From the NCBI GenBank assembly GCA_963796055.1, contig CAWCKH010000004.1, positions 2,848,001-2,912,000 of the forward strand: DNA of 64,000 nucleotides, written 5' to 3'. The DNA comes from an uncultured delta proteobacterium (lineage in GTDB: Bacteria; Myxococcota; Myxococcia; Myxococcales; Myxococcaceae). Shown piece by piece: positions 44,563 through 49,642 of the stretch (position 1 is the first letter of the stretch; every line of letters begins with the position of its first letter). Made by a program: the position numbers and the translations under genes. Under the pieces are notes generated by a model, which searched no databases, was not told the DNA's origin, and was given only the letters and a program-made list of their open reading frames with translations.

Positions 44563-45894
44563 ATGGCCATCGAGGTGCAGCTTCCGGCGCTCTCCCCGAC
44601 GATGACCGAGGGGAAGATCGTGAAGTGGCTCAAGAAGGAGGGCGACAGCGTGTCCTCCGGTGAGGCCATCGCCGAGGTCGAGACCGACAAGTCAAACCTC
44701 GAGGTGGAGTCGTTCGACGACGGCGTGCTCTTGAAGATCCTGGTCAAGGAGGGCGAGACCGGCGCGGTCGGCGCGCCCATCGCGGTGATCGGCGCCAAGG
44801 GCGAGAAGGTCGAGGTGGCCGCACCGGCGGCGAAGGCCCAAGCTCCCGCGCCCGCTCCGAAGCCCGCGGCCCCGAAGCCCGTCGCCGCGCCCGAGGCCCG
44901 CCGCGAGCAGCCACAGCCGGAAGAACGCGGCCAGCGACCGGGTGCTCCGGCGCAGGTGGTGCCGATCCGCCGGACCGAGGAAGCGGCCCCGGCGCCGGTG
45001 TCCGATGACGGCCGCCTCCGCGCCTCGCCGCTCGCCAGGCGGATGGCCCGTGAGGAGGGTCTCGACCTTGCCGGCGTCCAGGGCTCCGGTCCCAGCGGCC
45101 GCATCGTGAAGCGCGACGTGGAGGCGGCGATGGGCCAGGGACAGGCGGCCACCGCCGCTCCGGCGCCCGCCCCGCGTCCCGGGCCCGCGCCGGCACCTTC
45201 CCCGGTCTTCGGCCGGCGCGAGCCGGAGGTCCTCCCGATCTCCGGGATGCGGAAGATCATCGCCCAGCGCATGGCCGAGGTGAAGCCGGGCGTCCCGCAC
45301 TTCTACGTCACGGTCGACATCGACATGGAGGAGGCGGTCAAGGTCCGGGAGCAGGCCAAGGCCGCGGAGGTGAAGGTCTCGATCAACGACCTCATCGTGA
45401 AGGCCGCGGCGATGGCGCTCCGCCGTCAACCGAAGGTCAACGTCTCGCTGCAAGGGGACCGGCTGCTCCAGTTCCACACCGCGGACGTGGGCATCGCGGT
45501 GGCGATCGAGGATGGCCTCATCACCCCGGTCATCCGGGACGCGGATCTGAAGTCGCTGGGAACCATCGCCGCCGAGGCGCGCGAGCTGGCCGAGCGGGCC
45601 CGGCGCAAGGCACTCAAGCCCGAGGAGTACTCGGGCGGCTCGATCACCGTGTCGAATCTAGGAATGTTCGGTGTGGACTCGTTCATCGCGGTCATCAACC
45701 CGCCGCAGGCGTCGATCGTGGCGGTGGGCGCGGTGGCGGAGCGGGCGGTGGTGCGCGACGGCAAGGTGGTGGTACGCAAGACGATGTCCGCGACGTTCAG
45801 CGGGGACCACCGGATCGTCGACGGCGCACTCGGGGCCCAGTACCTGCAGGAAGTGAAGGCGCTGCTCGAGCAGCCGACCCGGTTGCTGTTCTAG
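44563..45894 (+). CDS. pdhC: Pyruvate dehydrogenase E2 dihydrolipoamide acetyltransferase
   Basis: Lipoyl domain ETDKS, E3-binding ASPLARR...GSGPSGRI, catalytic DHRIVDG; its TAG stop forms the IS junction. Confidence 0.97.
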   Translation: MAIEVQLPALSPTMTEGKIVKWLKKEGDSVSSGEAIAEVETDKSNLEVESFDDGVLLKILVKEGETGAVGAPIAVIGAKGEKVEVAAPAAKAQAPAPAPKPAAPKPVAAPEARREQPQPEERGQRPGAPAQVVPIRRTEEAAPAPVSDDGRLRASPLARRMAREEGLDLAGVQGSGPSGRIVKRDVEAAMGQGQAATAAPAPAPRPGPAPAPSPVFGRREPEVLPISGMRKIIAQRMAEVKPGVPHFYVTVDIDMEEAVKVREQAKAAEVKVSINDLIVKAAAMALRRQPKVNVSLQGDRLLQFHTADVGIAVAIEDGLITPVIRDADLKSLGTIAAEARELAERARRKALKPEEYSGGSITVSNLGMFGVDSFIAVINPPQASIVAVGAVAERAVVRDGKVVVRKTMSATFSGDHRIVDGALGAQYLQEVKALLEQPTRLLF

Positions 45895-45944
45895 GATGGA
45901 GCGACCCGTCAAGTCAGCTCTCTCGTTCGTTGGTGGCGATGCGT

Positions 45945-46150
45945 CTGTTCGCTTCGCAGCTCCTCGTGGTTCGTACTTCGAGGCCTTCAGGCAGGGGACG
46001 AGCGAGGGAGCTGCGACGGTTGATCACTCTAGGATTCGCGGGTCGGCGGAGCCGCCGCATGACCGTGATTCGTCGGGAGGCTTTCTCGCTCTAGCGGCGT
46101 GGGTCGGCGGGTCGAGCCCGCCGCCACTTAGAACTGTCGAGAGTCCCTCC
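45945..46150 (-). ncRNA. Predicted bridge RNA / seekRNA of the IS110-family element
   Basis: Two homologous stem-internal-loop-hairpin modules sharing CCGCCGACCC(A/G)CG...CTAGAG. Loop 1 holds GTTCTA and GCTAGA (both strands of the target); loop 2 holds ATCCTAGA (circle junction); a 3' hairpin follows. Boundaries approximate. Confidence 0.8.
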
Positions 46151-46210
46151 TACGTTCCTGGCTCATCCACTGCCTGCCGGCTTCGAAGCGATGCACGTAC
46201 GTTGCTCCTT

Positions 46211-47306
46211 TCAAGCGGCGCGGGCGATGGCCCAGACAAAGCCGCAGAGCTCGCGAGCCACGGCGACGGCCGCGACCTGCGAAGGTTTGCCGCGGGAGAC
46301 GAAGCGGTGGAAGCGCCGGTGCAGCCGCTCCTGGGCTTTCCATGCGTGGGCTACGACCTTTGCATCCTGGCCCTCCCAGCGCTGTTTGATGACGCCGCTC
46401 TGGCGTGGCGGGCGCCGGTAGTGCCAGGCGGCCTCGACCAGTACGCGCCGGGCGTGTCCGTTGCCCGTCTTGGTGATGCTGCCCCGCCGCTCCTTGGCTC
46501 CGCTCGAGCGCTCGCTCGGGACGAGGCCGACGAAAGCCATGAACTGGTCGGGGTGCTCGAACCGCTGGAAGTCGCAGAATCTCGGCGATGAGGATGACGG
46601 CCGAGAGCGTGTCGATGCCGCGCAGGCAGCGGAGCTTCGCAACGGGAGTTTTATAGGGCTCCTTCTCGGCGGCTGTCGCGAGTTCCTGGTCGAGCGCCTT
46701 GAGACGTCCGAGCGTTCCCTCGAGGCGGGCCAAGTACTCGGTGAAGACCGTCTGTGCGATGGGGGCCTCGAACGTCTGTTTGCGAAGCCACTTCCAGTGC
46801 GGCATCGACCAGTTCTTCTTGCCCTCGGTAAAGCTGCGCCCGTGGCGCAGGAGGAACTTCAGGAGTCGGTCGCGCTCGCGGATGACGTCCTCGCGCGCAT
46901 CCTCTCGGCAGCGAACGAGATCCCGCAGCGCCTCCTCGGCCTCGGAGGGGACGCGAATCGAAGTGAGCTCGCCGGCGCGGTAGAGGCGAGCGAGCTTCTC
47001 GGCGTCGCGCCGGTCGGTCTTGACCCGATCGCCGGCGCGCACCGGGATGAGCGAGGGCGCGACCACGTCGCATGGGATCTTCATCGCTGCGAGCTGCCGG
47101 TAGACCTCGTAGCCGCAACTCCCGGCCTCGTAGCAGGCGCGGACCGCCCCTTCCTTTTTGAGCCTGCCGAAGCAGCGCTTCAGCTCGAGCGCATCGTTCC
47201 GGATCTTCACCGTGGGCCGAGCGCCTCCCCGGTCACCGGCCAGCACCGAGAAGGAAATCGACTCCTTATGCACGTCCATTCCGACGGTCAGCGTTGTAGT
47301 TTTCAC
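46211..47306 (-). CDS. IS110-family DEDD transposase/recombinase (one apparent +1 frameshift)
   Basis: GMDVHK, CYEAG, VKTDRRDA (DEDD RuvC-like domain); C-terminal LRGID...FVGLVPSERSSG..R.G.ITKTGN...AVAVAREL in a second frame; joined by removing one base at ~46578-46580 (AEI-CDFQRF). Confidence 0.95.
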
Positions 47307-47548
47307 TCGACCGGCTCCTCGTTTGCGGCTCTGGCCGCGGCGTTGCCGAGGCTAATCCGCGCTGAACGAGCGAGCCGGTCGCTCCATACTGTCTAGCTCT
47401 CGGGGCCCGGACGCGCGCGCCTCGAACGGCCGTCCCCCTGGTCTGAGCACTGCCCTCCAACACCCGGGGCTCCGCGTCCCCCGGGGCGCTTACGCACAAA
47501 TCGCGTCTTCAGAGGCCTGCGCTCGTCCAGGTTGAGTGACCGAGCGAT

Positions 47549-49642
47549 TCAGGCCGCGACGTCGCCCGAGCGGCCGGGCGTGGCGGGCGCGGCCAGCGCC
47601 GGCAGCAAGATCCGGAACGTGGTCCCCGGTCCCGGCTCGGACGCGACCTCGAGCGTTCCGCCGGCGCGCTGGACGATGCTCCACACCAGGGTCAGCCCGA
47701 GCCCGATGCCCTGGGTGCCGCCGCGGGTGGTGAAGAACGGCTCGAAGATGCGCGACAGGTGCGCCGCGGGGATACCCGGTCCCTCGTCCTGCACCTCGAT
47801 CACCACCGCGCCCTGCTCGTCGTGCGTCCGGACACGGAGCGTGCCCGAGGGCGCAGCGAGCCGCGCGTTCCGGATGAGCTGGACCAGCGCTTGCTCCAGC
47901 TGCCCCGGGGTCACCATCACCCGCGCGGAGCTCTCGGCCCGCAGCATCTCGGCCCCGGCCTCCCCGAGCTCGCCGCGGAGGACCTTGACCACGCAGTCGT
48001 TGGGGTCCACGGCCTCGGGCCGGGTCACATCTTGCCGGGCGAGCTCGCGCAGCCCCTTGACGATGGCGCCGATGCGCTGCGCGCCGCCCTCCACGTCCTG
48101 GAAGAGCTCGCGGAGGCTCGCGGCGAGATCGCGGATCTGCACCTCGGTGAGCGCCCGGACCGCGGCCGCGGCGTCGCCCTGCCCGCCGAGGCGCGCCGCC
48201 CGCTCGATGGAGTCGGCGCCGGACTCGAGCTCGGCGGCCACGCCGCGCAGTGCCGAGAGGCTGTCCAGCATCGCCCCGAGAGGCGTCTGGATCTCGTGAG
48301 CGGCGCCCTGCGCCAGCTGCCCGAGCGAGGCCAGGCGCTCCTGCTCCCGCAGCCGTGCTTCCAGCCCGCGCTGGGCGGTCACGTCGCGGTAGTGGACGAC
48401 CACCAGATCCGGGTCCCCGGCGGCCTCGGTCCGGAAGCCGCTGAAGCGCACCTTCCGGCCGCGGGGCAGGGAGATCTCCGCGGTGAGGTCCGGCGCACCG
48501 GTGGCGAGCGGGCAGCCCACGCACGGCGCCACCCGTCCGGCGAGCAGCTGATGACAGGTCTTCCCCGGCACCTGGGTGATCGGAAGGCCCGCCGCGTCGG
48601 CGTAGGCGAGGTTCGCCCGGCGGATGACGAAGCCGTCCTGGAGGGCGATGGGCTCGCGGATGGCGTCGAAGGTGCGCTCCCACTCGCGCTTGGCGTGCAC
48701 CACCGCCCGGGTGCGGAGCTCGATCTTCGCCTCCAGCGCGGCGTTGGCGGCGAGGATCTCGCTCTGTACCTCGTGGAGCCGGGCGGTGTTGAGCGCACCG
48801 GCGAGCGCGGTTGCCACCTGTGAGCCCCAGGCCGAGAAGCGCTGGCGGTCGGCGTCGGAGAACGCCGAGCGCCCCGGGCGACGAACCGCCTCCAGCACGC
48901 CCACCAGCTCTCCGGCGCGGACCAAGGGGACGGCGAGCATCGCCCCGGGTTCGGCACCGTCACGGCGACGTACCGCCTCACGCCACGGTTCGGGCAGCTC
49001 GCCCTCGGCGTGGCAGAGCAGCGCGGGTTCGGCGGCGCAGGCTCCGGCGAGCAGCTCGCCGATGGCCATCGACGCAGGGGGAGCGGGCAGCGCCGGGTCG
49101 GCCGCCCCAAGGGTCAGGGTGACCTGCTCACCGATGCGCCAGCAGAGCACCCGATCGGCCTGCACCAGCCGCCGGACGCGGCGCACCGCCTCCCAGGCGA
49201 TCTTCTCCGGGGTGGGCAAGAGGTGGAGCGCCTGCACCTCCGAGGAGAATCGCTCCGCCTCGGACAGTCGCTGCTCCAGCGTGGGCGCCACCTGGGCCGG
49301 AGCAGTGTCCAGCCCGCGGCGGGCGCGGGCCTCGCGGAGGGCTGGTGCCACCTCGTCGGTGCGGGTGACGGCGACCACCCCGGCGGGAAGCGCGCGGGGG
49401 GCCGGGCCCTCGCCCACGTGGAGGAGGGCGGTGGCGCCGGAGGCGACGACGCGGGAGAGCAGGAGGCGCCAGAACGGGACCGGTCGGGCGAGCACGGCCT
49501 CCGCCACGCCCGCTCCGAGCAGGCTGAGGACCTCGTCCGGGGTACAGGGCCGGGGATCGAGCCCGCCCGCACGGAGCTCGTCGAGCAGCGCCGGTGGGGG
49601 CGCGTCGGGGCCGACGACGAGGACCGGCAGGGTCGGCTCCAT
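47549..49642 (-). CDS. Multi-sensor histidine kinase (GAF, PAS-like, HisKA, HATPase)
   Basis: LAVPL..VGVLE (GAF), WERTFDAI (PAS start), AHEIQTPL H-box, DEGPGI, FEPFFTT, GIGLGL. Confidence 0.9.
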   Translation of the reverse strand: MEPTLPVLVVGPDAPPPALLDELRAGGLDPRPCTPDEVLSLLGAGVAEAVLARPVPFWRLLLSRVVASGATALLHVGEGPAPRALPAGVVAVTRTDEVAPALREARARRGLDTAPAQVAPTLEQRLSEAERFSSEVQALHLLPTPEKIAWEAVRRVRRLVQADRVLCWRIGEQVTLTLGAADPALPAPPASMAIGELLAGACAAEPALLCHAEGELPEPWREAVRRRDGAEPGAMLAVPLVRAGELVGVLEAVRRPGRSAFSDADRQRFSAWGSQVATALAGALNTARLHEVQSEILAANAALEAKIELRTRAVVHAKREWERTFDAIREPIALQDGFVIRRANLAYADAAGLPITQVPGKTCHQLLAGRVAPCVGCPLATGAPDLTAEISLPRGRKVRFSGFRTEAAGDPDLVVVHYRDVTAQRGLEARLREQERLASLGQLAQGAAHEIQTPLGAMLDSLSALRGVAAELESGADSIERAARLGGQGDAAAAVRALTEVQIRDLAASLRELFQDVEGGAQRIGAIVKGLRELARQDVTRPEAVDPNDCVVKVLRGELGEAGAEMLRAESSARVMVTPGQLEQALVQLIRNARLAAPSGTLRVRTHDEQGAVVIEVQDEGPGIPAAHLSRIFEPFFTTRGGTQGIGLGLTLVWSIVQRAGGTLEVASEPGPGTTFRILLPALAAPATPGRSGDVAA

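Follow-up and report, generated by a model that had tools for sequence, protein, structure and literature searches.

The window, a stretch of 64,000 nt, carries on its minus strand an insertion sequence whose recombinase gene is followed by a long non-coding end, and the question raised by this locus is whether that end encodes an RNA that guides the recombinase to its target and to the termini of the element, as a preliminary description had proposed from the letters of the sequence. The element is very probably an IS1111-type member of the IS110 family encoding a bridge (seek) RNA behind its recombinase gene, with two loop-reading modules. This reading is based on sequence complementarity, covarying structure, covariation of the guides and five insertions at one 8-mer; by extension from IS621, ISEc11 and related work, the RNA would be made and bound by the recombinase, a circle with a junction promoter would form, and the cut positions are predicted on the same grounds. 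The anatomy first described is essentially right, and a candidate second donor guide, a probable long basal helix and a predicted junction promoter are added to it.

The element is 1,500 bp long (47392..45893, minus strand) and resides in a genome of 5.53 Mb with 70.7% G+C, assembled in 7 contigs. Its left end (47377..47392) consists of the extension ACAGT (47392-47388) and the 11-bp sub-terminal inverted repeat ATGGAGCGACC (47387-47377), which pairs with GGTCGCTCCAT (45906-45896) in the right end (45893..45912), where the repeat is preceded by a -35-like TTGACG (45912-45907) and followed by the extension CCT (45895-45893); the 11-bp repeats lie 5 nt (left) and 3 nt (right) inside the ends. 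Outside the element, the left half of the target and the core read G-CT-AG (47393..47397, minus strand, with the proposed core AG at 47394-47393), the left flanks of relatives ending in (T)AG, and on the right a core AG (45892-45891) leads into the right target half AAC (together 45888..45892, minus strand).

The recombinase gene, also on the minus strand, starts with GTG at 47306 and comprises an N-terminal part with a DEDD/RuvC-like domain and a coiled coil (46578..47306; PF01548, E = 1e-16) and a C-terminal part with the Tnp domain and the motif GLVPSERSSG (46211..46577; PF02371, E = 7.5e-16). In an alignment with IS621, D11, E60, D98 and D101 fall on its catalytic residues, and the SSG serine of GLVPSERSSG falls on that of the ESG motif (chain 8wt6_A); the excerpt of PMC11208158 used here identifies S241 as the catalytic serine of IS621. 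Moreover, the intact 364-aa open reading frame (ORF) of one copy of the element (L002) matches NF033542 with 253 bits (cut-off 140) over profile positions 1-339 of 343. The earlier assignment to the RNA-guided, IS1111-type DEDD recombinases is supported. The non-coding sequence amounts to 86 nt upstream of the gene (47392-47307) and 318 nt downstream (46210-45893). The long non-coding stretch behind the gene and the sub-terminal repeats of 11 bp place the element in the IS1111 group as defined in the excerpts of PMC11208160 and PMC11187229. Among the features expected of the group, the element shows sub-terminal inverted repeats of 7-17 bp (11 bp here), a long downstream and a short upstream non-coding region, an N-terminal DEDD domain with a C-terminal Tnp domain bearing a conserved Ser in GL-P----S(T)G, and site-specific insertion without duplication beyond the shared core (five copies at GCTAGAAC). 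A protein cluster look-up for the recombinase returned five members, none of them named. Upstream of the element and on the same strand, a 697-aa sensor-kinase-like ORF (47549-49642) ends at a distance of 157 nt, and read-through from it could transcribe the integrated element.

As assembled, the window copy has the two Pfam domains of its recombinase in two different reading frames, and it carries a single-base insertion in GATTCT (46581-46576), an extra T relative to the intact L002. Four of the five copies in the genome have a 1-nt insertion in the gene and only L002 shows an open frame of 364 codons, so that the window copy could be dead or non-autonomous, its RNA gene being a relic or being served by the recombinase of the intact copy. 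This reading keeps an appreciable share of the probability but is not the favoured one. The three distinct insertions are all confined to the only two GATCT motifs of the element (46581-46576; about 46920), and across the genome codon-phase shifts of +1 versus +2 stand at 15:1 for GATTCT and 15:1 for GAATCT, against 56:77 for GATCT; furthermore, the RNA region is identical in all five copies. On account of the GATCT location and the genome-wide phase-shift bias, the insertions look like a systematic basecalling or assembly error, which is somewhat the more probable origin of the frameshifts, and the window copy may in fact be intact. The earlier view of a transposase in need of repair holds for the window copy as assembled; it does not hold for L002, which is intact, and the frameshifts themselves resemble assembly errors. 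The indel-prone GATCT motif is possibly a methylated site.

The five copies are near-identical, and their flanks define the target. All four copies that have a left flank end it in GCTAG and all five right flanks begin with CTAGAAC, the flanks being otherwise unrelated, with the 8-mer GCTAGAAC as the sole sequence common to those of all five. From these shared flanks the conserved target is read as GCTAGAAC, which is exactly what the two target guides of the RNA spell, and all five copies sit at this 8-mer. Another 17 GCTAGAAC sites exist in the genome, all of them empty. Excision of the element in silico yields GCTGTTCTAGCTCTC on the plus strand, the empty site that had been reconstructed earlier in the same way, and a genome of the same genus (L118) holds the orthologous empty site GCTGTTCTAGCCCGG. 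On the plus strand, positions 45892-45894 form the TAG stop codon of an upstream acyltransferase-like gene; as the stop codon is kept after insertion, the host gene remains whole. The same arrangement recurs at all five occupied sites, where the element lies directly on the in-frame TAG stop of an ORF ending in ...TTC TAG, with at least 115 codons upstream and a matching GC3 phase, and such a stop is present at 7 of the 17 empty GCTAGAAC sites.

The RNA itself (46014..46150, minus strand, 137 nt) lies downstream of the recombinase gene and comprises two modules. Module 1, the target-binding loop (46076..46150), is built on the stems GGAGG/CCUCC and UCUCG/CGAGA, which enclose a 10x10 internal loop, and continues above the loop with GUGG/CCAC, a stem of 4 bp that is followed by a bulge of AC and by the apical hairpin. 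Module 2 (46014..46075) is the donor-binding loop and has the stems CGACG/CGUCG and AUCAC/GUGAU, a 6x10 internal loop and, above it, a 4-bp stem GCGG/CCGC, again with an AC bulge and an apical hairpin. Both modules contain CCGCCGACCC(A/G)CG; this shared motif, the module bounds and every string quoted in the preliminary description were found on the minus strand where they had been placed. Folding of 46215-45895 with RNAfold, a check that had been proposed, showed both modules at -138.2 kcal/mol (z = -3.83), a stability reached by none of 100 shuffles. In the minimum-energy structure the two target guides are paired with each other, since both read the same core on opposite strands, and the flanks of the modules form a basal helix that closes both of them, its 5' arm (46157..46197, minus strand) pairing with 46007-45965 and its 3' arm (45965..46007, minus strand) being delimited by the minimum-energy fold together with the pairing of flanks in relatives.

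The conservation of this RNA was assessed in 80 of 383 related stretches, kept after a search with the intact protein (38-55% identity) and derived from Acidobacteriota, Betaproteobacteria, Spirochaetia, Leptospira and others. A covariance model made from the window RNA alone, with its two-module structure, found a full-length match in 65 of the 80 loci (E <= 0.001), all of them on the gene strand and downstream of the gene, so that the proposed covariance-model check placed the same RNA behind the gene in these 65 loci; a family covariance model, tried on 13 of the remaining loci, recovered the RNA in 7 of them and also in the plasmid-borne ISEc45 of E. coli. Across 52 distinct RNAs, in an alignment that was fitted to the structure and takes in the refinement given below, pairing is preserved in 86.7% of cells compared with 73.0% after shuffling (0 of 500 shuffles reaching the observed value), and compensatory changes occur in 24 of 35 base pairs (slid controls, 32-48%). 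The helices 1-4 of module 1 are paired in 84-95% and show compensatory changes in 17 of 21 pairs, and in module 2 helices 5 and 7 are each paired in 95%, helix 6 in only 65%. RNAalifold applied to an independent MAFFT alignment (22 sequences with 60-nt flanks) recovered the module 1 helices and, within module 2, the 4-bp stem; because the flanks align poorly, it missed the outer module 2 stems and the basal helix, the latter resting on folding of the single sequences. It was RNAalifold that suggested the 4-bp stem with its AC bulge, which accounts for the motif common to the two modules. In every one of 51 distinct relatives the two 60-nt flanks of the modules fold onto each other (median 31 pairs, median z = -6.5), and they form 39 pairs in the window RNA, so that the RNA probably possesses a long basal helix, which was not part of the anatomy first described.

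Among the related loci, three copies of one betaproteobacterial relative (L016, L019, L023) carry about 190 bp more between gene and RNA than a fourth (L018), the elements measuring 1668 or 1665 with the RNA start at 2859 in the former and 1476 with the RNA start at 2667 in the latter. Two acidobacterial loci (L081:3754-3879 and L085:479-607, both on the minus strand) show, close to the first element but on the other strand, an additional RNA match, which points to two related elements lying close together; L085 has no RNA match behind its own gene.

The internal loop of module 1 presents the two target guides, named here after PMC11208160 (excerpt). The right target guide GUUCUA (46129..46134, minus strand), on the 5' side of the loop, pairs with top-strand TAGAAC, and the left target guide (46089..46095, minus strand), containing GCUAGA at 46095-46090, occupies the 3' side. 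Each side of the loop matches a different strand of the target, with the core common to both matches, and, as had been claimed for GTTCTA and GCTAGA, the two sides jointly spell GCTAGAAC; the top-strand match lies 5' of the bottom-strand match, the order that the accessible text of PMC11187229 reports for IS1111 seekRNAs and the reverse of that in IS110-type elements. In the window alone the two 6-mers are at chance level, and the proof is comparative. When the 137-nt RNA was shuffled 5000 times at the mononucleotide level, 2531 shuffles reached the 6-mer match in the sense direction and 1240 that in the antisense direction, and both 6-mers occurred together with the 8-nt donor match described below in 8. 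The weight of the 6-mers comes from their position in an internal loop, from the five copies at GCTAGAAC and from covariation throughout the family. For the latter, element boundaries were called from the inverted repeats, and 43 rows of canonical geometry were reduced to 30 distinct guide pairs after four rows had been dropped because their left flank does not end in AG and the boundary call is doubtful. The longest match of the reverse-complemented right target guide to the right flank averages 6.83 nt in cognate and 3.36 nt in non-cognate pairs, and that of the left target guide to the left flank 4.83 nt and 3.44 nt, neither value being reached in 10,000 permutations, counts that overstate the significance because the relatives share common ancestry and are not independent. 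The covariation of loop 1 with insertion sites, for which the preliminary description had asked, is thus seen for both target guides, each following the flanks of its own element.

The internal loop of module 2 reads the ends of the element. On its 3' side, the left donor guide AUCCUAGA (as DNA, ATCCTAGA; 46028..46035, minus strand) matches the stretch that runs from the right end through the core to left-end base 1, in agreement with the 8-nt match across the predicted circle junction noted earlier for 46035-46028; of the 5000 shuffles, 83 attained a donor match of 8 nt. Throughout the family this guide follows the 3-nt extension of the right end in four donor-end classes, ATC (guide AUAUCAG, most elements), CCT (AUCCUAG, the window element), GGA (AUGGAAG) and CTC (AUCUCAG). 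The preliminary description had found no convincing second donor guide; a candidate is now at hand in AC-G-GUC (46061..46066, minus strand), on the 5' side of loop 2, which pairs with G|AC-A-GT, that is, with the core G and the left-end bases 1-5 with one mismatch at base 3, and which is backed by covariation at the family level. Relatives repeat this split pattern (|||x||x), with pairing to the core G and left-end bases 1-2, base 3 skipped, and pairing to bases 4-5. Left-end base 4 covaries with the RNA in 19 elements (G:C in 7, A:U in 4, T:A in 4), and over left-end bases 3-6 the candidate forms on average 1.68 Watson-Crick pairs in cognate and 1.04 in non-cognate combinations (0 of 10,000 permutations). 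The second loop therefore matches both sides of the donor, as expected of a bridge RNA or seekRNA, the right donor guide being the weaker of the two: its 5 pairs include an internal mismatch and it overlaps the stem AUCAC/GUGAU, which is paired in 65% of the family.

This weakness, 5 pairs with one mismatch on the 5' side, leaves room for a reading in which only module 1 guides, as a seekRNA of about 75 nt, module 2 being a protein-binding scaffold and the ends being recognised through the sub-terminal repeats; a short seekRNA of 70-100 nt with target matches was reported to be sufficient for transposition of ISEc11 in the part of PMC11187229 consulted. Such a reading is improbable, since the 3' side of loop 2 changes with the right-end extension in the four classes ATC, CCT, GGA and CTC, the 5' side covaries with left-end bases 2, 4 and 5, and the two modules are alike in build, with the same 4-bp stem and AC bulge. 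A reading by coincidence, with the region taken as no more than a structured 3' untranslated region of a generic kind or as the terminator of the transposase gene, has very little to recommend it, for although 25-50% of the shuffled versions of the window RNA attain the 6-nt target matches and no family of Rfam 15 matches within the RNA (search of 45600-47700 at E <= 10, with weak and unrelated matches outside the RNA to CRISPR-DR28 at 22.5 bits and MS2 at 14.5 bits), the loop letters covary family-wide with the flanks of each element, all five copies sit at exactly the 8-mer spelled by the two guides, and a terminator scan gave two sites at chance level, none in the non-coding region of the element and only one on its strand (46256-46242), inside the end of the gene.

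As the crossover core, the preliminary description had put forward CTAG. Of 29 distinct related elements, 28 have a donor junction of the form ...ATC-AG-ACA (or GGA-AG-TCT) and a target of the form ...TAG..., and AG is favoured because these are the sole letters common to donor and target in relatives. The more likely core is consequently AG (CT on the other strand, as in IS621) rather than CTAG, although the crossover point cannot be fixed from sequence alone. In the window element the change of the right-end extension from ATC to CCT lengthens the donor-target identity from AG to CTAGA, and a CTAG core, rejected after the comparison of donors and targets in relatives, probably over-reads this coincidence. 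As a separate observation on junctions, a relative from the Holophagaceae (L020-L022) uses a repeated GGGGATGA-like motif as its insertion site and carries AA, not AG, at the right junction, and ten relatives with right flanks starting in AACG show the same AG/AA difference between their two junctions.

The letters next to the core follow a pattern of their own. In loop 1, the two letters 3' of the core on the 3' side equal left-end bases 1-2 of the element in 15 of 29 cases, among them both rare classes (AT, TC), and equal the next bases of the target in only one of 29; in loop 2, the single letter that follows the core on the 3' side agrees with left-end base 1 in 16 of 29 elements, and 12 of the 13 exceptions have the first base of the right target there instead. 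For the window RNA these letters are uninformative, as A fits both partners. The handshake guides of IS621 lie beside its right-side guides and take up the top strand of the partner DNA (PMC11208158, in the portion available). It could be tentatively suggested, with more doubt than confidence, that the handshake positions of this IS1111-type clade are the mirror image of those of IS621 and lie beside the left-side guides, with the letters behind the core on the 3' side of either loop taken from the other DNA partner. If so, the strand handed over by these recombinases would be the bottom one, as against the top one in IS621, and the window element would represent a natural re-programming of the donor, in which ATC/AUC gave way to CCT/CCU in the right-end extension and in its guide. 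An IS621-style handshake beside the 5'-side guides, where UAUGA is conserved, gave no match to the donor sequence by eye, and a partial literature search found no discussion of handshake guides in IS1111-type elements.

A candidate promoter would arise where the ends are joined. Joining would bring TTGACG (45912-45907) to a distance of 17 nt from the -10-like CAGTAT (47391-47386); the hexamer conforms to CANNAT (A2, T6) in 25 of 28 distinct relatives, and 12 of the 28 have TTGAC(A/G) at precisely this distance, most of the rest showing it, as judged by eye, displaced by 1-3 nt. A junction promoter formed by the joined ends is described for the family in the available text of PMC11187229, and the pattern seen here fits it as a predicted promoter; a promoter scan of the linear element sequence returned no promoter-like site.

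The mechanism that these features suggest would begin with the recombinase acting as a tetramer that, together with the RNA, brings the circularised element and the target site together. The guides of module 1 would jointly specify the target GCTAGAAC, the 3' side of module 2 (AUCCUAGA) would read from the right end across the core to left-end base 1, and its 5' side (AC-G-GUC) would read the core G and left-end bases 1-5, after which strand exchange would take place at the common AG (CT on the other strand).

The mechanism as such is not new: RNA-guided systems of this type have been known since 2024, and the protein family is already named RNA-guided by NCBI, the NCBIfam entry NF033542 ("IS110 family RNA-guided transposase") covering the protein only and neither the RNA nor the target. 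As in ISEc11, ISPa11, ISKpn4 and ISPst6 (Siddiquee et al. 2024, PMC11187229), to which the window element is likened by published description and not by sequence, a long non-coding region lies downstream of the gene; sub-terminal inverted repeats, the motif GL-P----SG, site-specific insertion, the order of the guides and a promoter expected only once the ends are joined are likewise shared with the IS1111 elements of that work. The window element differs from them in its target GCTAGAAC and in a recombinase of 364 aa, compared with the 330-350 aa quoted for the family, and whereas the excerpt of PMC11187229 describes target matches only, the window element has a supported second module that reads the donor.

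Like IS621 (Durrant et al. 2024, PMC11208160; Hiraizumi et al. 2024, PMC11208158), the window element has an RNA with two internal loops, each of which guides to both strands with guides overlapping at the core, an active site of DEDD and Ser, and the same core dinucleotide on the other strand (AG = CT). Conversely, the RNA of IS621 is located upstream of the gene, at the left end, and that of the window element downstream, at the right end; the order of the guides within each loop is reversed, and the inverted repeats measure 11 bp as opposed to 2-3 bp in IS621. A phmmer comparison of the two recombinases gave E = 2.8e-8, significant over a C-terminal stretch only. The annotated ISEc45-family element on the E. 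coli IncF plasmid NZ_CP083875.1 has a recombinase 44% identical over 98% of the length and, 25 nt behind its gene, a match to the family RNA model (L129:2332-2459, 39.4 bits); a single-sequence model of the window RNA gave no match at this locus. The loops of the ISEc45-family element match its own flanks and ends by eye, and it differs from the window element in target and ends (…ACGTAG | …AAG-A…).

To these systems the window element adds a fully readable, multi-copy RNA-guided IS1111 member with a short 8-bp target, drawn from a genome of high G+C (70.7%). The family alignment gained with it comprises 52 distinct RNAs, 30 distinct pairs of target guides and four donor classes, and displays all four guides, the conserved basal helix and possible mirror-image handshake positions. 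For the engineering of bridge recombinases, this amounts to another natural scaffold accompanied by natural re-programming events.

With respect to its distribution, the same element was not found in the 12 same-genus genomes searched, and a search of 60 relatives returned one left-end fragment of 86% identity, in a genome of the same order (G047), and otherwise weak matches. In G047, fragments 85-91% identical to the first 40-400 nt of the element (L088, L108, L115) are found mostly at contig ends, and a close relative of the element is probably present in that genome but unassembled.
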